A stretch of DNA of 64,000 bases from an uncultured Chromatiales bacterium (lineage in GTDB: Bacteria > Pseudomonadota > Gammaproteobacteria > SZUA-140). The stretch spans positions 6,990 through 70,989 of the forward strand of contig CAYTGL010000011.1 of assembly GCA_964437335.1 (NCBI GenBank). The letters run 5' to 3'. Under the pieces are notes generated by a model that made no database searches, was not told the DNA's origin, and was given only the letters and a program-made list of their open reading frames with translations. Positions 2,738 to 51,520 of this stretch are shown here, piece after piece. Both the position numbers and the translations under genes were made by a program. The stretch's first letter is position 1; each line of letters starts with the position of its first letter.

Positions 2738-5348
2738 CGCTGAATGCCTTATCGATAATCACGTCCACGCTCGACTGTTCGATGTCCGTGTCGGCATCCC
2801 GCAGCACGAGCCGGTACTTTGTCTTCTTGTTGAATTGCCGGTCTTCAAGCACCAGCACCACCTGCTTCGTCCGCTCTTCCATGTTGTCCGAGCCACTATC
2901 GAAGGTCACCTTCTCAATGTTCGTCACTGGCTCGTTGCCCTCGAAGATTGCCACCTTGAGGGTAATCGGTTTGACCCGGTCGCTCACGGCCTCGGTCTGA
3001 AGAAGCTGAAAGCGGTACTTGGGCGTCGTAATTCGATGATTGACGCCCAGCACCTGCACACCCACCCGCCGTGCTGCTGTTTCGCCCTTGGTCTTCCCTT
3101 TGACGTGCCGCACGGTCACCACTGGCACTACAATTTCCTGCGGCATGGTGCCGCCGTGGATGTAGCGAGCACCCCCGGTGAAGTGGAACAGGTTCACCGC
3201 CCTCGGAATCCAGAACTCCATGTCGCCTTCCGCCTGGGCCGTCGTTTTCGTGCTGCCATGGTAAGCTTCGTCCACGTCTGGCAAATTACGCCCCAGAAGG
3301 TAACGCTTCTTGGCAAGTATCGTGCCGGGGGGCTTGTCTTCCAGCTTGCTCTTATGCGGCTCAGACGGAGGCGTCTCACGGAACAGGAAGCCATGGTCAG
3401 CGGTCACCACCACGTAATTGCCGTTCAGGCTGTTGATCACAAATCGCACGAGTTCGCCCACTTCGTCAATCGTCTTACGCACGGCATCAAATGTGTCGCC
3501 TTCGGTGGCCAGCTTTTCTCCCCGGCTATCGATCTCATCGTGGTAGATGTAAACCACCTTCTTCCCAGCAACCAGGTCTCGGCCTTCTTCCTTCTTCATC
3601 GCCAACAGCACGTCAGCCTTTACCGCCATGCCATCGACAGCGGCCAGAATTTCGTTTCGCTGCTCTAGCGACCCGCACGACTTGCCATCGACCAGGATGT
3701 GTCCCTTGGCATGATATTCCAGCGTCTTGTGTGGCAGCAGACTTGCCATGCCCAAGGCGGTGTGTGACGGCAGCACGCTTAACTGCGAACCCAGCGATGC
3801 CTCAATTCGATACTTGCCGTTGAGTTCCTGCTTGAGTTCCTGGGCCGCCTCATAACGGAAGCCGTCGCTGATAATCACATACGCCCTACGATTCTCGGCC
3901 TCTTTCAGGCGAGGCTCAACATGATTGCGGTAGAAGTGGTACTGATTGGGAACGTCCGGGATCTTCCAGTTAGAAAGCATTCCGCCTTCGACGAACTTGC
4001 CCCAGGCCAGGGCGAATGTGGGGATGAACCAGTTCGTGTAGGCCGCTTCCACTTGCTCCCGCAACTCCTTGACGATGTTGCCGTATTGGCAGATGTCTGA
4101 GAACTCGCAGAAATGCCGGTAAAGCTGATCAAATAGGAATAGTTCGTCCTCATAAGCCCGGTACATCGCTTGGGCGCTGTCGAAGTCGAATCCCTTACGG
4201 TGAGAGTTTTGCAAGTGGAAGAATTCGGCAGCGGTTACCAGCGCCTCGTAGGCCGCATGAAGTTCCTTTCGACGAACCGAGGGGGAGCCAGACACGGTAG
4301 GGGAAGCCCAATGCCCGGATTGCCGCCTACCCGCAATCTCTCGCACTTCCTCGACATCGATTGTGTCGGCAGTGGCGATCACCCGGTCCCGCAGATGGCA
4401 GGCAATCTCAAACTCAACGCCCGTAAAGGTCATCACGTCGATCAGATGGTCGATTTCAAAAGCATGCAAGTGGTCGTCCAGAGTGATCCGCTGGGCCACG
4501 TATTCCGCCAGCCCGTCATAACTGCCACCTTTGCTGGAACTGTCCCGCCAATTCGCCAGGCAAACGACCGTGTTGGCTCGTCCGGCTTGCGGGAGCAGGA
4601 GGTGTTCCAGCGATGTTGGCAGCTTACCGTGAAGATGCTGAGCGAAGTCAGTCACCAACAACCGGATCAACAGGTTCTCCAGGCTGGGCGTTTCCTCGGC
4701 GTATCCAAACGACTTCTTGATAAACCTCCAGAACGGCTCTTCGAGGTCGAATTTTTCGATCTGCTCCCAAGCTGGGATCGGCTCCCTTAGGTCGATGTCC
4801 TCGATGTCGGCGTAAAGTTGGAACAGCGTCCGCAGAATGTTGAATAGTTCCGGTTGGTCGGCCTTCACCACTACCGCAAGCATCTTCCGGTCCAGGTCAT
4901 CTGCCGTGTCTTCGGGTGAGGCCAGCATCTTAAGCTTTTGGAGCCGGTCCTTGTTGTCGAAAAACTTGCGGCGCTGGACCAGATGCTCCCGAAGATGCTG
5001 AGCAGCCAGACCGAGTTCTTGGAGGATGATCGATGCTCGGTCGGCCCGAAAACTGCCGCTGTAGAGCCGAATGTCGAGCAGCCAATCGTTCTCGTAGTCA
5101 GGCTCTTCCTCGGGCGAGTAGACCAGGAACTTTGAGTCTGGTTCGCCGTGCTCCACTCGCAGTTTGGTTTCCAACGCCCCGGTTCTATCCAGTCGGATGA
5201 CCTGTACGCCATCGATGGGCGAAAAAAGCTGGCCTGTCAGGTAACCCACAAATTCCTTATCAGGATCATTCCAAAAAACGATCCGCTCTTCTCGGAAGAG
5301 TTTGTCGAGGGCGTCATTGACTTGTTTGGTGTCCATAAGAATCGTCAT
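2727..5348 (-). CDS. pglZ: BREX alkaline-phosphatase-superfamily protein PglZ
   Basis: 873 aa; N-terminus MTILMDTKQVNDALDKLFREERIVFWNDPDKEF is typical PglZ; sits between the methyltransferase and brxL in the operon. Confidence 0.9.
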   Translation of the reverse strand: MTILMDTKQVNDALDKLFREERIVFWNDPDKEFVGYLTGQLFSPIDGVQVIRLDRTGALETKLRVEHGEPDSKFLVYSPEEEPDYENDWLLDIRLYSGSFRADRASIILQELGLAAQHLREHLVQRRKFFDNKDRLQKLKMLASPEDTADDLDRKMLAVVVKADQPELFNILRTLFQLYADIEDIDLREPIPAWEQIEKFDLEEPFWRFIKKSFGYAEETPSLENLLIRLLVTDFAQHLHGKLPTSLEHLLLPQAGRANTVVCLANWRDSSSKGGSYDGLAEYVAQRITLDDHLHAFEIDHLIDVMTFTGVEFEIACHLRDRVIATADTIDVEEVREIAGRRQSGHWASPTVSGSPSVRRKELHAAYEALVTAAEFFHLQNSHRKGFDFDSAQAMYRAYEDELFLFDQLYRHFCEFSDICQYGNIVKELREQVEAAYTNWFIPTFALAWGKFVEGGMLSNWKIPDVPNQYHFYRNHVEPRLKEAENRRAYVIISDGFRYEAAQELKQELNGKYRIEASLGSQLSVLPSHTALGMASLLPHKTLEYHAKGHILVDGKSCGSLEQRNEILAAVDGMAVKADVLLAMKKEEGRDLVAGKKVVYIYHDEIDSRGEKLATEGDTFDAVRKTIDEVGELVRFVINSLNGNYVVVTADHGFLFRETPPSEPHKSKLEDKPPGTILAKKRYLLGRNLPDVDEAYHGSTKTTAQAEGDMEFWIPRAVNLFHFTGGARYIHGGTMPQEIVVPVVTVRHVKGKTKGETAARRVGVQVLGVNHRITTPKYRFQLLQTEAVSDRVKPITLKVAIFEGNEPVTNIEKVTFDSGSDNMEERTKQVVLVLEDRQFNKKTKYRLVLRDADTDIEQSSVDVIIDKAFSDDF

Positions 5349-5944
5349 TTCGTCGGCAACGGTGGAACTGTCTTCGTTGGCTCATCGAGCCAAATGTGAA
5401 TCACGCTGTCAAGGTTATTCAGGCAGTTCCAGAAATACGGGAATGCGTTCTGCAATGTCGCCTCCTGAATCTCACGAACTTGCTCCTCTTCGTCCAATTC
5501 GTTGACATTCACATGAAAGAGACCGCCATAGCCGTAGAACAGCTTCTCAACAGCGGCCTCAACGGTTTGATTCGCCCCGTGGAAGAAGCGATGATCGTTT
5601 ATTGGCAGACGACCCAATGTTTCCGACCATTTCTTGCGAACGTACCGAGTCCATGCCAAGAGGTCTTGTCGGTCACAGCACTGATTCACGATGTTGTGGA
5701 TGCGATTGAAGTTGATCGAGTCTTGCAGAAGAAATTGTCGCAGTAGTGGCAGTTGTGCCTGAAACGCAACCTTATCGTAGCCCTCAAAACTGGAGTCGAT
5801 CTGGCCGGTGGGAAATGTGATCTTCGTTGAATACTTGAAGGTTACGCCGCCACTCTGGACGATGCTACTTTGGCGCAGGCGATTCACTTGCCGCTGATAC
5901 GCACGGAGAATGATTAATTCGTCGTTTGTCAAAGCTCGTGTCAT
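5345..5944 (-). CDS. Hypothetical protein (199 aa) embedded in the BREX operon between pglX and pglZ
   Basis: ATGA-type 4-bp overlaps on both sides (its stop overlaps the pglZ start at 5345-5348; its start overlaps the stop of the 178-aa ORF at 5941-5944); no recognisable motif. Confidence 0.6.
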   Translation of the reverse strand: MTRALTNDELIILRAYQRQVNRLRQSSIVQSGGVTFKYSTKITFPTGQIDSSFEGYDKVAFQAQLPLLRQFLLQDSINFNRIHNIVNQCCDRQDLLAWTRYVRKKWSETLGRLPINDHRFFHGANQTVEAAVEKLFYGYGGLFHVNVNELDEEEQVREIQEATLQNAFPYFWNCLNNLDSVIHIWLDEPTKTVPPLPTK

Positions 5945-6477
5945 GCTTGCGTCTCGCTTTCGCCGTCGAACTCCTTGCCGTACTTTTCATACATGAAGCC
6001 GAGAGCGTTCAGCGCCTGTGGTGAACCGCTCTCAAGTGGTTGCGCTCCAGTTATTAGAGTCTGGCGAAGGGATTGAACCGTTTGCGTAATCGTCCCCTGG
6101 TCAAACCCTTGGATTTGCGATGTTCGCAGGGAGAAATCCTGGTGGTAGGCCGCTACGCCGGAGGTAAGCAATGTGCCTGAATCGGTATCCAAGACAAGCA
6201 GCGTTGGATCAACGTCGTAGCACTTCTGGTTATTTTTGTCGGCGTCCACTCGATACGGTGCGATTAACATCCAGTCACGTCTAGTCGAAGGATCGCCAGA
6301 AACGGCAACCTCAATGTGCGTGCATTTGTCGAGGAACTGCGACGGATGTACTTCAAGGCTCGCCCTTTGCTGGTAGTCGGGAATGTCATATACCTTGACG
6401 TTATTGCTGCCGACGTCAGCCCACAGCTTCGACGCCGCATCATGCTTGTCTTCAAACCATCTTTCTTTGGCACCCAT
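5941..6477 (-). CDS. Hypothetical protein (178 aa) embedded in the BREX operon directly downstream of pglX
   Basis: Starts 10 bp after the pglX stop (6488), same strand; 4-bp overlap with the 199-aa ORF; no recognisable motif. Confidence 0.6.
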   Translation of the reverse strand: MGAKERWFEDKHDAASKLWADVGSNNVKVYDIPDYQQRASLEVHPSQFLDKCTHIEVAVSGDPSTRRDWMLIAPYRVDADKNNQKCYDVDPTLLVLDTDSGTLLTSGVAAYHQDFSLRTSQIQGFDQGTITQTVQSLRQTLITGAQPLESGSPQALNALGFMYEKYGKEFDGESETQA

Positions 6478-6487
6478 GATCTAGCTC

Positions 6488-9400
6488 CTATTCTTTGTCC
6501 TTAGTTCCTGATACCGCCTTCACTTCCGCCAACAAATCACCGAACTTGCCGTAATTCGCTTTTACGCCGTCGTCGAGGTCGAGCTTGATGCGATGGTCGG
6601 CGTAGTGACGGAGCTTTTCGTCGAATGATTGAACCTCGGCCAGCTGTTTGACAACAGTCGCCTTTTCTGTCTCCAGACGCTTTTTATGTTGGCTGGAAGT
6701 GGCGGCGGCGATTTCGTCCGTCAAGTGGTCGATGCGGGCAGTCATCTTACCGAGCAGTGGAATCACGTACTCAGTGCGCATCCGAGCCAGGGTGCTTTCG
6801 TTGTAGCGGTGGAGGTAGACGAGGGCCTGAAAGCCACGCTGCTTGCCGCTAGAGAAGAGCCAGTAGATGGGCCGCCGCTTGTAGAGCGACAGGTGATGCT
6901 TGTAGAAGTCGGCAGCGAGATAGCGACGGATAGTGTCTCGTGGCGACTCGCCTTTCTTATCGCCCAGGCTCTCGGCCACGAACTTGAGGTTCTCCTCCAG
7001 ATGCTCCTTCGGCCATGCGGTGGCGACGAACTTCTCAAATCGACTGGCGGCATCGTCGGGGAACCAGTGGAACTCGGTGAGCGGAATGATCCCATCTTCG
7101 TCAGCCGGGAAATTGTGGTATTTCGATGGATCGAAGCCGACGTTACCGCTGTGGGCATAGATCAGCCCCGGCTCATCGAGGCTGTACCGGCCCATCATAC
7201 AGCCGGTGGAATAGGAGATGAGCCGCTTGATGTCTTCTTCACAATTAGGGCGATAGAGGGTAATGTGATCATCGGATACTTCCGGGGAGAGTTCATCTTG
7301 GAGACCGTAGGCACGGATCACCGCTTCATTGTTTTTTATTTCGGCTGCCTTCATGTTCCGCAGTATGTCATGGCAACGAGTTACCCATCGTTGATGGGAC
7401 AGACGCACGAGCGGTTCATCAGACCCGCTGCTGGGCAGCAAATCAAGTGTTGAAAAGTCCCACGAATACTCTGAATAATTCCAATCGTTTTTGTGTTGGC
7501 GTACGATTTTCTCAACTAGATCAGAGTCCACTGAGGACAGTGGTGGCACTGGGAGCGTCCTGATTTGACCTACTTCAAAGCCAACTGTTGGGCTGACGAT
7601 TTGCAGGAGCGAGGTTGTTACCGTGCTGTTGAGAATTCCGATAAGGCCAAGCATGTCGTTGGCGTTACTGCAATAAATCCCGCATCCCTTATGACCGATT
7701 ACAAAACCTTCACCGAAAGCTCGAAAAGATGGTGCAGCAATAGAAATAAGACTCCACGTAATTCCAGGCTTGAAATAATATGACTCTGATGGGCACTGGT
7801 TTCCCACGGTTTTCAGCACTTCGTATGAGGCTGCATCAAAGGAAAGGACAAACTCGTTATTCCCGTACCACCTGCGAAATGCCCCTCCCTTATTGTACGG
7901 GAACCACTTTGCGTCACTTTGCCATGCACTGGTCCGAGAATGATGGCCGAATCCTAGTTTTGAACAGGCGACCTCGAACCAGTACCTGATAAAGCGGTCG
8001 TTGTCTCCAGTCGCAAGACCTTGGCGAAGCGTCGCTGACTCTCCCAAAGATGGCATCTCTGCAAAACAATTTCTTGTACGGTCGCTTATCCAATATGCCA
8101 GCGGAGAACCGGGGATTTTCCTGAATTCGTGTCCAGAGGTCTGATAGGGATTCGCCGCTTGGAATCGACGCTGCAACTCGTCGTTGCTTGCAACGCTTCC
8201 CTGCTTTTCAAATAGCTTTAAGTAACTCCCTCGCAATTCTGGCATTACCATATTGCGGAACGTAAAAGCGCAGGTGCCAAAATCTGAACCAAACACTCCA
8301 CGACCATTGTGAACAAAGGTTTCAAATGATTGATGGTTGACTAGACTCTGCCGCATGTCTTGGAACGATGAAAGAAACATCCAGTTCGGAATTGTAATCA
8401 TTCCAACGATTCCGTTGGCTGCCGCAAAACTAGTGTTTCGAGAAATGAAGCAGCCGTATAAATCAGCTTTTGCACTCGTGTATACTGCCGTTACGAACTG
8501 CTTTAGTTGTTTGGAATAATATTTCCCTCCCATGTAGGGCGGATTTGAAACGACTGCTTTGTATTGTCGTGCCAGTAAGACAGTCTGTTTAAGCATCGGC
8601 CAGAATGACAGTGCCGTAGCACTTTCGAACATCCCGCCTTCCATCGTCACAGACCGCACTCGAACAAGAGTCGTTGCCAGGTGATCGGACAACAGCTTTG
8701 GCACCCGAATCAACGAGCCAAACGTCTTGCCGTGCGCAAACAACTCGATCAATTGCGAAACATCTGCCTGCGAGATGTCGCCAGTTGAGCCATCAGGTAA
8801 TGGCGCATTGATCGCTTCCGTAATCTCCTTGGCATCCAGTCCCTTGCTCTCTTGAATCGACAGCACATGCGGCTGCACGCCTCGCTCGAAGATGCTGCGG
8901 TCGTCGGCTCGGGCCTTCATCATCAAGGCGAAGGCGGCAAGCTGTGCAGCCCGGTCGTCGATCTCCAAGCCGTAGAGATTCTTCTCCAAGATCAGCCGGG
9001 GGATGTCCTTGGCCCGGTAGCCTCGCTCTTGGTAGATCGCCTTCAGCAAGTCATAAGCCTCGACCAGGATGTGACCGGAACCGCAAGCCGGATCGAGGAG
9101 CGTGAGTTCCTCCGGGTTCAGACCGTCTGGCGTGATCTCGGCCAGCTTCGCCTGCACTTCCGGCGTTTGCTCGGCAGGCTCGATGTAGTATTCCATCCAG
9201 TATCGCTGATCACCCTCGTTCTCGGGCTTCGTGGACAGCGGCGAGTCGGGGTAGGTGGCGACCCACTGGCGGCCAAGGCTATTCTGCACCAGATACTTGA
9301 CGATCCAATTCGGCGTAAAAAGTTGCGTGGCGGCGGGAATGTCCTCGCTCTTGACCACCTTGCCAATGACCTGATCCTTCTTTTCGCTAATGTAGAACTG

Positions 9401-10033
9401 GTACAACCAGCCGATGATCTCAACGTCCTGCCAGCCCTCCTCGGGAATCTCGTTGATCAGATTGCGAATGAGTGAATCGGAGTGCAGCAAGTGATCGGGC
9501 AGGAGCAATTCCGTCTCATCGTCGATTGACTCGAACAAAAACGGCATCGCCTTTTGCAGAGCGTTGCACTGCGCCAACAGCAGCATCCGGTAGAGTTCTT
9601 CCTCTTTGGTGCCATCGAGCTTGAGTTCGACCACCTTCTTCTTGTCAAGGTCCGGCAGATCGACATGCTCGGCATGACCCACGATCTCGGGCAGGTAGTG
9701 CCCCTCGGAATGGCTCAACACCCGATAGCCATGCTCCAAGTAACCATGCAATTCCAAAAAGCGGATAGCGACCAGCCGGTTGAACCACGTATAGGCGACC
9801 GCTTCCATCGTTTGCCCGAAACCATCCCGCTTGATGCGAGCTTCGAGCTTCTTTCGCTTTTCGCCCACAGCTTTCGTGTGTGGCTTCCCAGCGATGATCG
9901 CCACATCGCCTTCGACCGTCATCGGCTCGATCTTCTTGGCGGTCAGTCCATACTGCGCAGCACGGCTCGTCACCGCCTCGATAAAATCACGGCGAGCCTG
10001 GGGAGCGTAGGATTTGAGCTTGTTGCGGTTCAT
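6488..10033 (-). CDS. pglX: BREX adenine-specific DNA methyltransferase PglX
   Basis: 1181 aa; NPPY catalytic motif (VVSNPPYMGGKYY); AdoMet-binding LDPACGSGHIL; N-terminus MNRNKLKSYAPQARRDFIEAVTSRAAQ typical of PglX. Confidence 0.9.
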   Translation of the reverse strand: MNRNKLKSYAPQARRDFIEAVTSRAAQYGLTAKKIEPMTVEGDVAIIAGKPHTKAVGEKRKKLEARIKRDGFGQTMEAVAYTWFNRLVAIRFLELHGYLEHGYRVLSHSEGHYLPEIVGHAEHVDLPDLDKKKVVELKLDGTKEEELYRMLLLAQCNALQKAMPFLFESIDDETELLLPDHLLHSDSLIRNLINEIPEEGWQDVEIIGWLYQFYISEKKDQVIGKVVKSEDIPAATQLFTPNWIVKYLVQNSLGRQWVATYPDSPLSTKPENEGDQRYWMEYYIEPAEQTPEVQAKLAEITPDGLNPEELTLLDPACGSGHILVEAYDLLKAIYQERGYRAKDIPRLILEKNLYGLEIDDRAAQLAAFALMMKARADDRSIFERGVQPHVLSIQESKGLDAKEITEAINAPLPDGSTGDISQADVSQLIELFAHGKTFGSLIRVPKLLSDHLATTLVRVRSVTMEGGMFESATALSFWPMLKQTVLLARQYKAVVSNPPYMGGKYYSKQLKQFVTAVYTSAKADLYGCFISRNTSFAAANGIVGMITIPNWMFLSSFQDMRQSLVNHQSFETFVHNGRGVFGSDFGTCAFTFRNMVMPELRGSYLKLFEKQGSVASNDELQRRFQAANPYQTSGHEFRKIPGSPLAYWISDRTRNCFAEMPSLGESATLRQGLATGDNDRFIRYWFEVACSKLGFGHHSRTSAWQSDAKWFPYNKGGAFRRWYGNNEFVLSFDAASYEVLKTVGNQCPSESYYFKPGITWSLISIAAPSFRAFGEGFVIGHKGCGIYCSNANDMLGLIGILNSTVTTSLLQIVSPTVGFEVGQIRTLPVPPLSSVDSDLVEKIVRQHKNDWNYSEYSWDFSTLDLLPSSGSDEPLVRLSHQRWVTRCHDILRNMKAAEIKNNEAVIRAYGLQDELSPEVSDDHITLYRPNCEEDIKRLISYSTGCMMGRYSLDEPGLIYAHSGNVGFDPSKYHNFPADEDGIIPLTEFHWFPDDAASRFEKFVATAWPKEHLEENLKFVAESLGDKKGESPRDTIRRYLAADFYKHHLSLYKRRPIYWLFSSGKQRGFQALVYLHRYNESTLARMRTEYVIPLLGKMTARIDHLTDEIAAATSSQHKKRLETEKATVVKQLAEVQSFDEKLRHYADHRIKLDLDDGVKANYGKFGDLLAEVKAVSGTKDKE

Positions 10034-10452
10034 CCGTTCTCGATTTCTTTCTCGTCATGTTGTACGGGAAACACACCTCGACCACTGTCAGATCGTTCGA
10101 TGGCTCCGGCCAACACAATCGGCGATAATCTTTGAAGAAGTTCAAGTAGGTCAGGCCAATCGAACACTCGCACCACGCAGCTTTGATACATCGTCACAAT
10201 CGTTACAATCCATGCTGGAGTCTCCTTGAGGTGACGACTAGCGGATGAGCCACGAACATACTCCCAGAGAGAGAAACAAAAGCTGTTCGTGCCGCCGTAT
10301 TGCTTAGTCTCCATATAGCCAAAATCTGGAAGGTATGAACTCCATTCACCTCTGAATTCATCTTCACCAAAGTAGACCGAGGAAACCGATATAAAATGGC
10401 CATTCTTGAAGATGTAGTGGTCTTGAGACAAGGCATGCACTCCTAAAGACAA
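10030..10452 (-). CDS. Hypothetical protein (140 aa) embedded between brxC and pglX
   Basis: Stop overlaps the pglX start by 4 bp (10030-10033); the segment is visibly AT-richer than the flanking BREX genes; no recognisable motif. Confidence 0.5.
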   Translation of the reverse strand: MSLGVHALSQDHYIFKNGHFISVSSVYFGEDEFRGEWSSYLPDFGYMETKQYGGTNSFCFSLWEYVRGSSASRHLKETPAWIVTIVTMYQSCVVRVFDWPDLLELLQRLSPIVLAGAIERSDSGRGVFPVQHDEKEIENG

Positions 10453-10472
10453 CGGTGATTCGATTTAGGCTC

Positions 10473-13400
10473 CTACCGAATTTGAACCCGTTCACCCCTA
10501 GCGACAGCTTCTTCCAACTCTCTTCGCAAGGCATCCAGGAAGCCTTCAACGTCTTCCTGAGTTTCCAGGTACGTTGTCTTAACCATGGACGATGGCCTTA
10601 TTTCTTTGCGTGGCTTGACTACCACAACTGGCTCATCGCTCTTCTTCGTCTGCTCGTGCTTCTTCTTGAGAAACTCGTCGATCTTCGCCAATGCCCCATC
10701 GAGTGCCCGCTCCGCTTCCTGCACAGCCTGGGCAATGTGGGCCACGCTTTCTTGCTTCTCAACCGACTTTCGCAGTGACTCCAACGGCCCTAAGCAGCTT
10801 GAGCGGAGACTCTCTTCACTACCGAACTTCTCGACCTCCTGCGTAAGCTGTGACTGCAACTCATTGATGCGGGCCAGGGCCTCGACTCGTCGTTGGCTGA
10901 CAATGGCCGAATTGGTCCCCTCGACCGTCGTGATTAGTGCTTCGGCCTCATGGACGAGGTTGTAGGGGCTGGGGGCAGAAAGGATTTCTTGCATTCTCCC
11001 TAACGATTTGCGGGCCTTTTCGTCCCGTTCCAATTCCAACCTATTCAGGCCGAAGCGGTCGTGGGCCTTGCGTAGCTTTTCCCAGGTCGGCTTTTGATAC
11101 CGGTAGAAGTTGTCGATGTCGTGGAACTCTTCCGCCAAGTCAAGTAGTTCGGCTTTGTTCTCGATGAATCGAGCTATAAACTTACCCGGCTCGTCGGCAG
11201 CCAAGAGTGCCTTGATGACTAACAGGCCGTCCGTGATCTCGGTTTGGCCTGGGTAGTTGCCCGTGTCGGCCAGAGTCTTGTATTGCAACAGCGACGACTG
11301 CCAAGCCTGGCACTTCCCCTTAAGGAACTCGAATAGCCCGTCTTCGCTGTCTGGTCCCATTTCGGAGAAAACGTCTTTGCCCAGGTTGCGACATTGTTGC
11401 AGCACCTTGGGATCGGTCATTTTGCGACGGACGACGGTGATGCTTCGCTGCTTGCGGGGAGCAGTGATGTTCTCGAACACCTTGTCCATAGCGATGGAAG
11501 CACCGTTGGTCACTAATTGGATTTCCCCCAACACAAGCAACCTGGCGACAAGGATCAGCACTTCATCGTTTGACCAGCCATACGGTCGCTTTTCATAGCG
11601 GTCGAGCATGTCGAACAATACGACGGGGTGATTGGCCCGATCTGAGAGGCCAATGAACTCACGCACTTCCTCCAGCGCCCGGTCGTTGACGCCCGACATG
11701 GCTGCCTTTTGAATGTCGTTGGCTCGCAGAATCGCTTGCAGTTCTCGCTTTGGCTCATCACTGAACTTGGTGACGTAGGCCATCTTGGAGAAGCTGTTGT
11801 CGATTAGATACTCCAGCGACTCGTCCAAAGCCGTGAGCGGTGCCGATGATTTGATGTCCACTCGTTGGCCGGCAGCGAAGTATGTGGCGTCGGCCATCAG
11901 ATTACCGAGCAGTTGTCGCAGCCGCTCCCGGCGTTCCCGATTATCATCGGCCATGGCTCGGTGGATGCGTTTGGTCGTCTCCGGCAGTGTATCGTCCGAT
12001 TTGGCTCGCAGGAACTTCTCAGTTTGGAGGTACTGCCGTAGTTCACGGGCCAGGTTGGGATCGTCGTTGATCTTTATGATGATTTGCCCGCCATCCTGGC
12101 CACTTTCCCGTTGGAACCGAGCGTCTTCGAACAACTCAGGGTCGGCTTCCCCCAATGGCGTGAAGACCTGAACGGTTAGGTCTTTGTCCACTCGGCTGCC
12201 GTAGGGAAAAGCATCGCAAACTCGATTGAACGAAAAGTCCATTTTGTTCGCTTGGTAGCGATGTTTGCGTGTGCCCTTGAGAACATCATCGAAGACAATT
12301 TCTCCCAGTACCTTGGCTTCTTCGCTGCTGGAGAGATCGACCGACTTGATCTCCCGGTTAATGTCCCGTTCTTCATTGGTGAGGAAGAAGAAGTTATCGC
12401 CGCTACGGTTGATCAGCGTTTCTTTTTCCAGCCGCAGCAGCGACTCCTCGATTCGCTTCTTGAGCGCCAATCGGTCGGCGTCAATCTCATCGATGCAGAG
12501 GGTGGTCAGATTATCGATGTTTCCTCGAATTTCATCCACGTAGCGAATGAGGAACAATACCCGCAGAACGTCGATGTCGAAAGGCTTGAGGCTGGCGTTC
12601 TCCTGAGCCTGGTCGATGGTTCGTTTGACGGCAGTGTCGAGGAAAGATTCGATGGACGGATAGAAGCGGTACAGTGGCACCAGCACACCAACTTCGGCAT
12701 CGGCAACGGCTTTACCTGCCGATTGAAAGGCGTCGAGGATCGACCGCTCACCCCGAGATAGGTGTAGACCTGTTGCCCCCGCTTTGCGAATCGCCTCAAA
12801 AATGCGCTGCACTAATTGGAACTGGTAAGGGGCAAACGGATAGTTACGGCAAAAGTCGTCGCTATCCTTGTACTTATTGAAGGTCATCCCTACGTTGTGG
12901 AACGAAAGCTGGTTGCGAAGGATGTCTCCCTTCTCCCGAAAGATGTCTTCCAGCTTGCCTTGCACGGCGTCCCACTTCGCTAACAGCCGCTCCTGAATGA
13001 CTTCGTCCACGTTGGCGCTGGAGAGCGATAAGCGGGTCTTGAATCGGCCTTGAATCTTGGAAAAGTCGTGCGACTTTGTGCTGCGCAAATCTCCCAGCAC
13101 GGCGTCGATATCTTCCTGAGAGGTAACCACCACCCACGCTCGGCCATTACACATGGTTCCCAGGTCTTCGGTGATCGTTTGCAAATTGAGCATCAGATGG
13201 GTATCGCCACCGATAAACTGGCCGACTTCATCGACGAGGAAGATAATGCGATGTTCCGGCCCTTGGCGGTCGAGGTATTCCTTCACCCATTTGCAGAAGT
13301 TCTCGACTGTGAGGGAGAAGTTGTCTTCGGCTTTGTCGATCCACTTTGCACAAGATTCCTTGGACTGCCCAAGTGTAGCGGCCAGTGCCTCGACCACTTC

Positions 13401-38938: not shown

Positions 38939-39877
38939 ATGGTGTCACATTCACGTCCCGAAGGCCGCAAGAATTCGGGCGATAATGTTTTCGGCGGTGT
39001 GCCAGTTGGTCAGGAAGAGGCATCTCTCCTCAGCCAGTTTCTGTCGGCGCAGGACTTGGCCGAAAACAGTCGCCGTGCAGTCATCAATGATGTGCGGAAG
39101 TTTACCAGATGGTTTGCCGAGGCAAACCATGAGCCGTTCACAGTCGGCCGTGTCACCACTCGTGACATTGCCGACTTTCGGGATCACCTGCGCCGCAAGC
39201 AGGATCAAGCCGTCGCCACAGTCAACCGTGCCTTGATGTCGATTCGCCGCTACTTTGGCTGGTTGGTTGAGCAGGGTCACCTTCATGCCAATCCCGCAAA
39301 GGCAGTCAAAGAGCTGCGAACCGTGGAACTTTCGCCCAAGGGGATGGATCGTGCGGCGGTGCGACGACTGCTCCGTGAGATCGAGCTTCGGCAGGACGTA
39401 CGGGCCAACGCCATTTTCCACCTGCTGCTCTACACTGGCTGCCGCTGTGGCGATCTCGTGAACCTTGACATGGCCGACCTCCTTGTGAGCGACCGCAGCG
39501 GTTCAGTGGTCTACAGATTCGGTAAAGGCAACAAGCAGCGATCGGTGCCGTTGCCCGTTCCTGCCCGTCGAGCATTAGCGACCTACCTGGAAACTCGGCC
39601 GCCTTCGGAAAGTCAGCGGATCTTCATCGGCGAACGAGGTCCACTCGGCGAGCGGGGAATTCGAGCGTTGTGCGACAAATACTCAGCTCTGATCGGCGTG
39701 AAAATCCACCCACACCTACTGCGGCACACGATGGCCCACGGCTATTTGGATGCCAACCCTGGTGACCTCGTCGGGCTTGCCCAACTACTTGGCCACAGCA
39801 ACTTGAACACGACCGCACGATACACAAAGAAGAGCCAGGAAGAGTTGCGGGCGGCAGCGGAGAAGGTTGAGTATTGA
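38939..39877 (+). CDS. Tyrosine site-specific recombinase (XerC/D-type integrase)
   Basis: Core-binding N-terminal domain plus catalytic box [38 protein letters not shown] (R..H..R..Y). Confidence 0.85.
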
Positions 39878-41571: not shown

Positions 41572-42552
41572 ATGCCAGCTGAAATTTCCTTCGTCAATGG
41601 AAAAGCTGAAGCCGCCTTCGCCTTGAAGCCAGCGTGGTGGGACGCTGCAAACCGTTGCACGCTCGACCACGTGCCCGACTCGGCAGGGATGATTCGGGCC
41701 GCACATTTGAACTGGGAGGTTCAACCGCAACCGATCTACAACGCCGACGGCCGAATCATCGAAGGGTATAGCACGACGGTTCGCTTGGACACGGGTTTGC
41801 ACCTTGGCGTGATGTCCGATCAATATCGTGTCGTTCAGAACGCCGAGGGTTTCCGTTTTCTCGACAACTTGCTGCGAGATGGCGTCATGCGGTACGAGTC
41901 GGCTGGTGCCTTGCGTGGCGGCCGCACCGTGTGGGCCTTAGCTCGAATGCCTTCGGTGGACACGATCGCTGAAGGCGACGACGTGTGCCGCTACTGCTTA
42001 TGGCTGAATTCGCACGACGGCACGGGCGCAATCTACGCCATCCCCACCAGCGTGCGAGTGGTTTGTGCAAATACAGCCGCCTTGGCAATCCGTGGCCAGC
42101 GTGGGATTAAACACATGGGCGACATGGACGCCAAGCTGAAGCAGGCGCATGAACTGCTCAGCCAAGCCGACCGCCAATTCACCGACTTTAGGGATAATGC
42201 CCAACTGCTTGCCAACCGCCGATATAGCCCAGTTGATGCCAAGCAGTACGTTGCAACCTTGTTGCCAGAACCAGAAGAGGCAGGCCGTTCGCTTTCGATC
42301 CGTGAACGCAAGGTCGAAGAAATCCGCATCGCACTCCGTAGCGATCGGCAAAATATCGCATCGATCCAAGGCACCTGGTGGAGCCTTTACAACGCCGTCT
42401 CTGAGGGAATCGACCACGGCCGTTTCTACGGGTTCAAAGGCAAAGGCCAACAACGGGCCGAAAACCGTATGACTTCCGTCATGATGGGCCAGGGGGCGGA
42501 ATTCAAACGCCAGGCTTTCGATCTGGCCGTATCGATGGCGCAGGCTTCGTAG
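41572..42552 (+). CDS. DUF932-family protein (phage/plasmid-associated)
   Basis: Conserved WLNSHDGTGA block and overall length ~326 aa typical of DUF932. Confidence 0.65.
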   Translation: MPAEISFVNGKAEAAFALKPAWWDAANRCTLDHVPDSAGMIRAAHLNWEVQPQPIYNADGRIIEGYSTTVRLDTGLHLGVMSDQYRVVQNAEGFRFLDNLLRDGVMRYESAGALRGGRTVWALARMPSVDTIAEGDDVCRYCLWLNSHDGTGAIYAIPTSVRVVCANTAALAIRGQRGIKHMGDMDAKLKQAHELLSQADRQFTDFRDNAQLLANRRYSPVDAKQYVATLLPEPEEAGRSLSIRERKVEEIRIALRSDRQNIASIQGTWWSLYNAVSEGIDHGRFYGFKGKGQQRAENRMTSVMMGQGAEFKRQAFDLAVSMAQAS

Positions 42553-49106: not shown

Positions 49107-50924
49107 TCAATCAGTCTGATCAATTTCATTTTCTCGATGCCGATAGACGCTCATTTTCGAGCAACCCACCTTTTCGGCGATCTCGGCGGGCGACATTCCT
49201 CCTTTTGATAGTCGGCGGATTTGCTTGATCTGTCGAATGTTGAGGCCACCACCTCCCAGCTTTCGCTCCACCGGAAATGGATCGTCAGGGGTGGCGTCGA
49301 AGACCGGTTTGAGCTTTTCTTGCAGCCATTGGAGAGCCCTGAAGACGTTTCCAAACGGCTTGTTCGTGTAGCACTCGATCAGGCTCTTGCTGCCCAGCGG
49401 AGATCCGTGTCCAAGAAAGATTTCTGAGATCTCGCCTCCAAACTCTTCACGTATCCAATTGGAAGCTGTGTCACGCAACGCCTCTTGGGGCAGTCGTGGA
49501 AACTCAGGCTCAGCGGTCTCGACACGGTCGAGAAGCCGATTCCACATATTTGTTAATTGATGATTTGGATTCCCGCCCTTGGTCGGCTTTGTGAATGAGT
49601 GCCCAGCTTCATTGAGCAGTGCGATGGACGTGGAACGAAATGGAATCTCACCTGTGGTTCCGTCTGCTCTCTTGACGAGTGTTCGCTTGCGTCGTCGATC
49701 GAGTACCCACTCCATGCCCTGAACGGTCAGAGGCCAAAGCAGCCATTCGGCGTATACCTCGGTCTTTGTCCTGATCCGCCGCACGAATGAATCGTCCTCG
49801 GTGAAGTCAAAAGCAATATACTGCGCATATGGGTGCTTTTGACGTAGCGTAATCTCGCCCACCCGCAACGTGGCACATTCCATTCGCTTGAAACCGAGAT
49901 TCAAGCCGCAGAGCAACAAAAACCGCTCAAATGGAACGGCGAACTCATTAAGCGTCTTGAGTTGTTCGACGGTGTAAGTGCGGACTTGCTGGGACGGAGC
50001 AGTTACAGGTGCAGACTTGTCTTTGTTCGACTTTCGGATCGCTAACTTCAACTCATCGAAATCGGTCGGCTTTTTCCAGTCGAAACGATCTGATTTTGAG
50101 AGCCAGCGCATGAATTCCTTGATTCGCTTGGCGTGCTCACGGCAAGTTTTGACAGCAAGCGGACCCGTGCCGTCTTTACGAGCTGGTCTCTGTCTCCAAA
50201 CCTCAATCATCGCATCGCAGCCATCGAAAGTCAGCTTGGACAGCGGCCAATTCAGTTGGTGGGCATTGAAAGACCGTATTCGCTCAAGTGCCGCCAGGTA
50301 CTTCTGCGCTGTATCGCTCAGACGCTTCTCGGTGAGACCTTCCTCTGGATCAGGGTCAACCAACATTCGAACTCGAATGTGATCGTTTTCATAGGCATCC
50401 AGTGCCTCCTTAACCGTAGCTTCTGTGGGATCATGTCCATTCGAAGCTTGAGCGAAGAACCGCACTTCCTCCATGAGGCCCTCTGAAATGGATGCAACCT
50501 CCTGCGACCCCAATTCGTATGCGTCCTCATCTTCGGGCGCAAAGTGGACGAAGGGAAAAATGTTGCGCCACTTTTCAAGAGTCGTGACGTAGTCGAACCG
50601 ATGCCCCATATGGGGTTCGCCCGATGGACGTGTAATCATGTCCATCGGAATTCGGACGCTTGACTCCCCTTGCTCGAATGCTTTGGCGATGTACAGGGTA
50701 AGCTCGTTCCACTCCGAGTCGCCGAGCGTTTCTACGGCGTAATCCCAAAGCTCCTGGATTCGCTGTTTTCGACGCTCCGATTCCCGCTCATTGGTTGTGA
50801 AGCGGAACTTATGGCCGTCCACCTTCCCGCTCTTCGTAGCCTTTCGTCCTAGCTTGGCGCAATAGCGGCCCGTGGCTTTATCTCGACTCAGCGCCGTTCT
50901 TCGAGACTTGCTGCGTGTAGACAT
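49107..50924 (-). CDS. Large tyrosine integrase (phage-integrase family) with C-terminal HTH
   Basis: Catalytic region ...LRDTASNWIREEFGG...FLGHGSP...YTNKP (R/H/Y residues); C-terminal MSPAEIAEKVGCSKMSVYRH HTH; immediately 3' of the tmRNA gene. Confidence 0.75.
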   Translation of the reverse strand: MSTRSKSRRTALSRDKATGRYCAKLGRKATKSGKVDGHKFRFTTNERESERRKQRIQELWDYAVETLGDSEWNELTLYIAKAFEQGESSVRIPMDMITRPSGEPHMGHRFDYVTTLEKWRNIFPFVHFAPEDEDAYELGSQEVASISEGLMEEVRFFAQASNGHDPTEATVKEALDAYENDHIRVRMLVDPDPEEGLTEKRLSDTAQKYLAALERIRSFNAHQLNWPLSKLTFDGCDAMIEVWRQRPARKDGTGPLAVKTCREHAKRIKEFMRWLSKSDRFDWKKPTDFDELKLAIRKSNKDKSAPVTAPSQQVRTYTVEQLKTLNEFAVPFERFLLLCGLNLGFKRMECATLRVGEITLRQKHPYAQYIAFDFTEDDSFVRRIRTKTEVYAEWLLWPLTVQGMEWVLDRRRKRTLVKRADGTTGEIPFRSTSIALLNEAGHSFTKPTKGGNPNHQLTNMWNRLLDRVETAEPEFPRLPQEALRDTASNWIREEFGGEISEIFLGHGSPLGSKSLIECYTNKPFGNVFRALQWLQEKLKPVFDATPDDPFPVERKLGGGGLNIRQIKQIRRLSKGGMSPAEIAEKVGCSKMSVYRHRENEIDQTD

Positions 50925-51159: not shown

Positions 51160-51520
51160 TGGAGGCGGCGGGAATCGAACCCGCGTCCCGCGATATTTCA
51201 ATAACAGCCTCTACGCGCGTAGTCGAACTCATTTAAGGTTTCGCCGTTCCACCCCCTGTCGACCGGGTGTTGGATTGGCTAGCCGGGGACGGCTTTTTAG
51301 CCCGGGGCGTTCCCAGCGGTGACCCCAGGCGAGTCGAATTTGACGGCCGGCTTTTGGGTCTCTTCGACGAAGACCCGCAGTCGGGGTTGCCGTTACTAGG
51401 CAGCCAGTGCGAGATTATTCTCGGCAAGTAAAATCGTAGTCAGCTTTTTACGTGGCCAACTGACCAACCACGGCACGCCACTGATACATCAGGCTATCCG
51501 GTCGATACCAGTTCGCCCCC
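51160..51520 (-). ncRNA. ssrA: tmRNA (SsrA), ~361 nt
   Basis: 5' end GGGGGCGAACUGGUAUCGACCGGAU (tmRNA 5' consensus). 3' end GGACGCGGGUUCGAUUCCCGCCGCCUCCA (T-arm plus acceptor). Acceptor stem pairs with G3:U70. Internal tag reading frame GCC GAG AAU AAU CUC GCA CUG GCU GCC UAG UAA gives AENNLALAA**. CCA is not encoded. Confidence 0.85.

Follow-up and report, generated by a model that had tools for sequence, protein, structure and literature searches.

A rare small-protein gene of probable mobile-element origin separates brxC from pglX in a type 1 BREX operon

Introduction

Accessory genes nested in bacteriophage exclusion (BREX) operons are already known. In the BREX island of Escherichia fergusonii pEFER, a type 1 operon, the non-canonical gene brxU forms an insertion between brxC and pglX (PMC8565348), and in the Salmonella D23580/LT2 BREX system (StySA) the accessory module PARIS (ariA/ariB) is embedded in, and transcribed with, the operon (PMC11341690, PMC9009780). 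Two proteins of the system are also targets of phage inhibitors, since Ocr of phage T7 targets PglX (PMC7261183, PMC11341690) and OrbA of phage ICP1 targets BrxC (PMC11580459). Here we analyze 64,000 nucleotides of DNA from an uncultured Chromatiales bacterium (contig CAYTGL010000011.1, positions 6,990 to 70,989 of the forward strand), referred to throughout as the window, in which a type 1 BREX operon harbors a small gene, designated orfX, at the site that brxU occupies in pEFER.

Comparison with these systems sets orfX apart from each of them. BrxU is a large GmrSD-like type IV restriction nuclease (DUF262/DUF1524) for which defence has been shown, whereas orfX encodes 133 amino acids (aa) without a recognizable domain. 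PARIS is a two-gene ATPase/Toprim system located between pglX and pglZ, a slot that in the window is taken by open reading frames (ORFs) of 178 and 199 aa and not by orfX. Ocr and OrbA are small early proteins of phages that lack enzymatic domains, and the relatives of orfX likewise lie in early regions and form an acidic family, but the likeness is one of context only: orfX has no sequence match in 50,697 phage genomes, including T7-like phages and ICP1, matches no solved inhibitor structure, is far less strongly charged than a DNA mimic and is encoded in a host operon rather than by a phage. What appears to be new at this locus is the cargo itself, which represents an undescribed family with a confidently predicted fold that has no clear structural neighbor.

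orfX reads as an intact gene ending on the pglX start codon

The left 15 kb of the window is taken up by a type 1 BREX operon that is complete and runs along the minus strand in the order brxA-brxB-brxC-(orfX)-pglX-(178 aa)-(199 aa)-pglZ-brxL, its BREX genes being all assigned by Pfam and PADLOC with E values from 1e-42 to 0. The original prediction, which was made from the letters and a list of ORFs, held that an extra gene is embedded between brxC and pglX, that it is the third such gene in the operon and that it overlaps the pglX start by 4 bp. All three statements hold. Both flanks match PADLOC models with an E value of 0, three non-core ORFs are nested in the operon (orfX plus the 178-aa and 199-aa ORFs between pglX and pglZ), and the overlap is seen directly in the sequence. 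The junction is made up as follows.

14036-10473, minus strand: brxC, upstream neighbor, 1187 aa as gene call (PADLOC BrxC, E = 0; gene call in the identical contig L001)
10432..10472, minus strand: brxC-orfX spacer, 41 nt (sequence and promoter/terminator scan)
10452..10030, minus strand: orfX as mechanically called ORF, 140 codons from TTG 10452 (ORF list)
10432..10452, minus strand: in-frame 5' extension of the mechanical ORF, with TTG 10452 and GTG 10440 as alternative starts
10440..10444, minus strand: Shine-Dalgarno-like AGGAG, 8 nt 5' of TTG 10431 (read off the sequence)
10030..10431, minus strand: orfX coding sequence in the preferred model, TTG start, 133 aa plus stop (family N-termini, Shine-Dalgarno sequence, homology)
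10030..10033, minus strand: ATGA, 4-bp overlap of the orfX TGA (10032-10030) and the pglX ATG (10033-10031)
10033-6488, minus strand: pglX, downstream neighbor, 1181 aa (PADLOC PglX, E = 0, model positions 1-1171 from residue 1)

The brxC stop codon (TAG) is at 10475-10473, and the mechanical ORF of brxC reaches up to 14213. The mechanical orfX ORF begins 20 nt past that stop. The start of orfX is most likely TTG 10431 rather than TTG 10452, because AGGAG is found 8 nt upstream and the N-termini of the family align there. The corresponding 133-aa product is identical to the call in an NCBI record (P0001), and a Logan gene call begins instead at GTG 10440, giving 136 aa. The segment 10432..10452 is thus probably an untranslated leader. 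Since a scan of the spacer between brxC and orfX found neither a promoter-like site nor a credible terminator on the coding strand, the simplest reading is that orfX is co-transcribed with the operon. Two alternative ORFs in the region, of 77 aa on the minus strand and 71 aa on the plus strand, were dropped because their codon scores were negative, and an Rfam scan of 9800-10700 gave as sole match a sub-threshold CRISPR-DR inside pglX, which was discarded.

As for base composition, the original prediction had described orfX as visibly richer in AT than its BREX flanks, and it is: its GC content is 0.469, compared to a mean of 0.548 for the window (2.5th percentile among 420-nt windows), and its GC content at third codon positions (GC3) is 0.48, compared to 0.68 ± 0.08 in windows of BREX core genes. 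The middle of pglX (~7400-8600, codons ~460-890) is equally AT-shifted, with a GC content of 0.43-0.49 and a GC3 of 0.46-0.52, which is not the case for the rest of the BREX core; this portion of pglX may be a segment for specificity or target recognition that has been exchanged. Moreover, in all six phage or mobile-element loci compared (L042, L044, L045, L047, L049, L050), the homologue of orfX lies 3-10 GC points under its own locus, and AT-richness may therefore be a property of the family rather than a mark of recent transfer. Because mid-pglX is equally shifted and the homologues are AT-shifted in their own loci, the AT shift alone cannot date the insertion.

Codon statistics taken alone are equivocal. 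The orfX reading frame scores best among the six (+0.10 bits per codon, with -0.15 to -0.49 for the other five), and this score ranks at the 17th percentile when set against windows of real genes and at the 94th when set against off-frame windows. Where codon statistics do not decide, homology does, because orfX is matched over its full length by a protein family.

orfX belongs to a rare family associated with mobile elements

That family came to light in an exhaustive phmmer search of 1.84 billion representative proteins (cut-off E ≤ 1e-3), in which orfX matched 18 proteins, including the window's own product P0001. Two of these (P0008 and P0011) were set aside as artefacts, being long proteins whose matches are driven by repeats; the other, credible relatives have lengths of 110-190 aa, cover approximately residues 12-135 and share 30-49% identity with OrfX. 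A profile search enlarged the family to 22 proteins at E ≤ 1e-3 and to ~30 distinct sequences overall, among roughly 15 billion proteins. A hidden Markov model (HMM) built without the window protein matches orfX end to end, with 87.5 bits and an E value of 6e-20 computed for a search space of 1.8 billion sequences (HMM positions 4-115 of 126). The hallmarks of the family are a GYxxSQxVGDxxGLxYxLxE motif and a C-terminal helix WPDLIxLLxKLSPIALAG, in which some G, W, D, L, S and A residues do not vary. OrfX keeps the invariant or nearly invariant residues G11, G46, W74, V76, W92, P93, D94, L95, L98, L99, L102, S103, I105 and A108 (P0001 positions), its SQxVGD motif is degenerate (TKQYGG), and the gene is free of frameshifts and internal stops.

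On the basis of these comparisons, orfX is an intact protein-coding gene in a very rare, undescribed family of small (about 100-140 aa), mostly acidic α+β proteins. It follows that the decayed insertion envisaged in the original prediction is not what we see, since orfX is a full-length member of a conserved family in which the invariant residues are kept. The same prediction called the product unrecognizable. This is correct for the standard libraries, as scans with Pfam, NCBIfam, PHROGs and PADLOC returned no match for orfX (none at E ≤ 1 in Pfam and NCBIfam), but not for the exhaustive HMMER scan that yields the family. When the relatives themselves were scanned, 16 with Pfam and 21 with PHROGs, only scattered single matches were found, with best E values of 0.0018-0.0032. 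A word-indexed protein search recovered the identical protein only, and L001, the sole other contig with orfX, matches the window at 100% identity over 20.4 kb and so provides no comparative signal.

The genomic contexts of ten other occurrences point to mobile elements. Nine are early or replication modules of phages or integrative elements, one is ambiguous and none is a BREX operon.

L042: phage with terminase, Mu-type portal, Sipho_Gp157, HNH and two methyltransferases
L044: phage-like array with VRR_NUC, SNF2 helicase and an intein-bearing N6_N4 methyltransferase
P0020: Prim-Pol element, with HTH_17
L045/L046: integrative element with integrase, DUF1580, HTH_17 and DUF3987
L047/L048: phage-like module with ERF, helicase, DUF4326 and DUF5131
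P0021: serine-recombinase element with two HTH_17 genes
P0024: array of about 27 small co-directional ORFs
P0031: context with a Toprim protein, ambiguous
L049: array with DUF3310
L050: phage with Gp3-like, YqaJ, PhageMetallopep and ParB_N

No partner gene is conserved across these contexts and the window, orfX being the sole gene that they have in common. OrfX itself departs from the phage or integrative-element setting of its family, as it sits in a BREX operon. Translated (tblastn) searches of the INPHARED collection of 50,697 isolated phage genomes and of the PLSDB plasmids, and a blastn search of the plasmids, gave no match. Pattern scans in two alignment orders of IMG/VR and of Joint Genome Institute (JGI) metagenome contigs produced matches of which tblastn confirmed none, which is partly a limit of the method, since some members of the family stem from JGI samples. 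Seven of the ~30 members come from JGI sample 3300047160 (P0020, P0021, P0024, P0031) and from the Logan runs SRR21686406/408/412. DUF1580, carried by L045, is a planctomycete-associated family. The orfX family may be largely confined to the mobile elements of one bacterial lineage or habitat.

OrfX is predicted to be a curved β-sheet protein without an obvious active site

An AlphaFold2 model of OrfX based on an alignment of 21 sequences reached a predicted local distance difference test score (pLDDT) of 81.5 and a predicted template modeling score (pTM) of 0.72. It was used instead of a single-sequence model, which was dropped (pLDDT of 34). The predicted fold consists of a curved β-sheet and a long helix and is not a helix-turn-helix (HTH), with the hydrophobic C-terminal helix, the conserved core of the family, packed on the sheet in the model. 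The closest known folds are curved sheets of the NTF2-like or SnoaL-like kind (for example, 2chc and 3gzr), and a structural search with the model found no significant neighbor. Sequence profile matches in the Protein Data Bank (an RNA polymerase subunit and Tsi3) had E values of ~1 and were discarded as chance.

The family is acidic, with an isoelectric point (pI) of 4.0-5.4 in 28 of 32 sequences. OrfX, with a pI of 4.97 and a net charge of about -7, is only mildly so, and when it was compared with the DNA mimics Ocr and ArdA, neither similarity nor a strongly negative surface was found. At the invariant positions of the family, none of which is of catalytic type, there are glycines and hydrophobic residues together with a single Asp and a single Ser, a pattern that favors a structural core over an active site. 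OrfX may thus be a non-enzymatic binding protein, as these positions weakly suggest. The original prediction had proposed a regulator or an antitoxin, neither of which finds support: no regulator domain (HTH or WYL) was detected in OrfX by Pfam or NCBIfam at E ≤ 1, no antitoxin domain (HTH, ribbon-helix-helix [RHH] or AbrB) was detected by Pfam among the 16 family members scanned, and no toxin partner gene adjoins orfX or is conserved in any other family context.

The brxC-pglX junction appears to be a recurrent cargo slot

To place orfX within BREX, we examined 40 loci that encode relatives of PglX, the closest of which share 61% identity and come from metagenome-assembled genomes (MAGs) of Planctomycetota. 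The junction counts are based on the 26 of these loci that show the ends of both genes. In 14 of the 26, brxC and pglX are separated by a gap of just 9-88 bp; in the other 12, the junction holds 0.4-3.8 kb of unrelated cargo. This cargo includes AbiEi/AbiEii (four loci), a PIN toxin-antitoxin pair, Fic/Doc, HNH, AAA_14/DUF4143, a Schlafen AlbA_2 protein, DUF429 and AAA_15/AAA_21. No member of the orfX family is present at any of the 26 junctions, and a six-frame scan with the family HMM was blank in the 40 loci and elsewhere in the window. Judged from these sequences, the brxC-pglX junction is a recurrent cargo slot, in which orfX is unique among 27 junctions. OrfX has the features of embedded cargo (non-core, on the same strand, between core BREX genes and without a terminator of its own), and it lacks those of a core gene, since it is not conserved in type 1 operons and has no PADLOC match.

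Because orfX is absent at 26 related junctions, 14 of which have only 9-88 bp to offer, it was not in the ancestral operon. The later insertion proposed in the original prediction is supported in this way, but the AT-richness that had been offered as its proof is weakened by the similar shift in mid-pglX and across the family. It had also been suggested that absence from all close homologs would speak against the gene. OrfX is indeed absent from the BREX homologs, but its status as a gene stands, its relatives being in phages and mobile elements.

The way in which orfX meets pglX has parallels. PglX relatives start with ATGAA(C/T), except for one ATGCAT, one GTGAAC and one truncated match, and because this start is conserved, the TGA of orfX is supplied by pglX. 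In two other loci, the stop codon of the cargo likewise overlaps the pglX start: a Schlafen-like gene in L012 (4493-6004) and abiEii in L015 (5135-6004; pglX start at 6001). The conserved ATGA start thus offers a recurring, ready-made docking point for cargo entering the operon. The overlap is compatible with termination-reinitiation coupling, yet it is no evidence that OrfX is specially related to PglX.

These data also bear on the view that orfX is a neutral hitch-hiker heading for decay, recently captured and still intact, functionless in its host, with the ATGA a by-product of the ATGAAC of pglX. It is at one locus only among the 27 junctions, it is the most divergent member of its family with the weakest codon adaptation in the operon, and the overlap needs no special selection since the conserved pglX start provides the TGA in relatives. 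However, orfX is full length, with a start codon, a Shine-Dalgarno sequence, all the invariant or nearly invariant residues and neither frameshifts nor internal stops. It shares only ~30% identity with every known relative, so that either the capture is old or the donor is unsampled, and a stretch of 133 codons would not have remained open in an old ORF under neutrality, at an estimated stop probability of ~5% per random codon. We consider neutrality decidedly unlikely.

A somewhat better case, although still an unlikely one in our estimation, can be made for orfX being a stand-alone accessory gene for anti-phage defence or superinfection exclusion that travels in the BREX operon and broadens protection, with homologues carried by phages and other elements to exclude competitors. 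Phages and satellites carry defence genes, the identifiable junction cargo in relatives is all of the defence or toxin-antitoxin type, and the window is a defence island with NOV_C, HNH_2, UvrD-like and PIN_8 genes. The precedents of brxU between brxC and pglX (PMC8565348) and of PARIS in BREX (PMC11341690) point the same way. The toxin-antitoxin and Abi cargo of the related loci (AbiEi/AbiEii, PIN, Fic/Doc and HNH in L006, L015, L025, L035, L040, L029 and L017) shares its slot and orientation with orfX. However, these are recognizable two-gene or enzymatic modules, whereas orfX is a single gene that matches none of them. OrfX has no PADLOC match either. Its product is one small protein that lacks an effector-like domain, and no partner gene recurs from one context to the next. 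In addition, the homologues lie co-directionally inside replication or early modules and not in lysogeny or moron positions, and invariant residues of catalytic type are absent from the alignments.

Two of the related junctions have peculiarities of their own. The biggest cargo, 3.8 kb in L025 (2177-6001), stacks several modules, namely AbiEi/AbiEii, a split AAA_15/AAA_21 ATPase and an unknown 215-aa ORF. In an Endozoicomonadaceae MAG (L008, 5317-6001), the gap contains highly repetitive sequence that encodes repeats of the EALIMLV type on one strand and, on the opposite strand, a coiled-coil-like ORF of 164 aa.

The wider operon and its island

The remaining genes of the operon are arranged as follows.

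15210-14620, minus strand: brxA (Pfam/PADLOC)
14623-14048, minus strand: brxB (Pfam/PADLOC)
5941-6477, minus strand: nested gene, 178 aa, between pglX and pglZ
5345-5944, minus strand: nested gene, 199 aa, between pglX and pglZ
5348-2727, minus strand: pglZ (Pfam/PADLOC)
2737-692, minus strand: brxL (Pfam/PADLOC)

Overlaps of 4 bp join the 178-aa gene to the 199-aa gene and the 199-aa gene to pglZ. Neither protein has a match in Pfam, NCBIfam, PHROG or PADLOC, and neither gene is present in the 40 loci encoding PglX relatives. Four homologues were found for the 199-aa protein, with 75%, 62% and 32-34% identity, and a search with the 178-aa protein returned none.

Further into the window, a transfer-messenger RNA (tmRNA) gene with the tag AENNLALAA is found at 51160-51520 on the minus strand. 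On its BREX side lie genes for a 605-aa HTH_23/HTH_7 protein, a DUF932 protein and a tyrosine integrase (49107-50924, 41572-42552 and 38939-39877) and, further from it, for ARPP-1, PIN_8, a UvrD-like helicase, HNH_2 and a NOV_C (McrA-like) protein. A large mobile defence island integrated beside ssrA, the tmRNA gene, probably includes the BREX operon.

Discussion

We are confident that orfX is a real gene, that its family is one of mobile elements and that it represents cargo in a hotspot, these three points taken together. The fuller explanation that we favor, on balance and with distinctly less assurance, is that orfX is horizontally acquired mobile-element cargo in a BREX slot, co-expressed with PglX and encoding a binder or modulator. 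Comparison with related operons suggests that orfX would have entered this type 1 BREX operon horizontally at the brxC-pglX junction. As far as can be judged from the anatomy of the locus, it would be transcribed with the operon and translated from its own AGGAG/TTG, and translation would terminate on the pglX start, physically coupling its synthesis to that of PglX.

What OrfX does is the more tentative part. The likeliest role, which we would still put no higher than possible, is that of an inhibitor- or modulator-type factor derived from mobile elements, one that counters defence or binds a host factor. In that role it would benefit the mobile island or adjust the system and would not be a core component of BREX. 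Such a role is weakly suggested by the neighbors of its relatives, which adjoin orphan methyltransferases, DUF4326, DUF5131, ParB_N, primases and recombinases. Phage and mobile-element regions of this kind are where anti-defence and host-takeover genes cluster, and a mobile island that itself holds BREX could benefit from a modulator-type factor.

Several observations weigh against the explanation that we favor. The association with BREX is seen at one locus, the only other copy (in L001) being 100% identical, and there is no sign of selection there. OrfX is the most divergent member of its family (24-37% identity in alignments) and its codon adaptation is the lowest in the operon, both of which could also be accounted for by relaxed constraint. 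No homologue was found among the 50,697 isolated phage genomes and none was confirmed in IMG/VR. The anti-defence idea is one of guilt by association only, and OrfX shows no sequence or structural similarity to Ocr, ArdA or other solved inhibitors, its charge (about -7) being mild. Finally, the other cargo in the slot is of the defence or toxin-antitoxin type, which favors a defence role.

A more specific possibility, which we rate as the least probable of those considered, is that orfX is a domesticated BREX modulator: a former phage inhibitor, now put to use by the operon, that would for example bind PglX or BrxC and delay or limit restriction until the host is methylated, or act as bait for phage counter-defence. 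The position of orfX directly upstream of pglX, to which it is translationally linked, is consistent with this, as is the phage or mobile-element origin of the family. The two flanking proteins are precisely those hit by phage inhibitors, PglX by Ocr (PMC7261183, PMC11341690) and BrxC by OrbA (PMC11580459). However, orfX is not conserved in the other BREX loci examined, and it shows no similarity to Ocr or to OrbA-bearing phages. That such an ex-inhibitor, domesticated in BREX and made in step with PglX, would work as a brake or establishment timer, or as a bait sensing phage counter-defence, strikes us as very improbable. If this were nevertheless true, it would add a new regulatory layer to BREX, and the family would constitute a new fold class of defence modulators.

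Returning to orfX as acquired mobile-element cargo, its interest lies in the fact that it sits between the two BREX proteins targeted by known phage inhibitors. If OrfX binds BrxC or PglX, it would provide a handle on the poorly understood mechanism and regulation of BREX and would point to an anti-BREX role for its phage homologues. If it does not, it would be a further example of how permissive the brxC-pglX junction is, a property that the recurring ATGA of the conserved PglX start may help explain.

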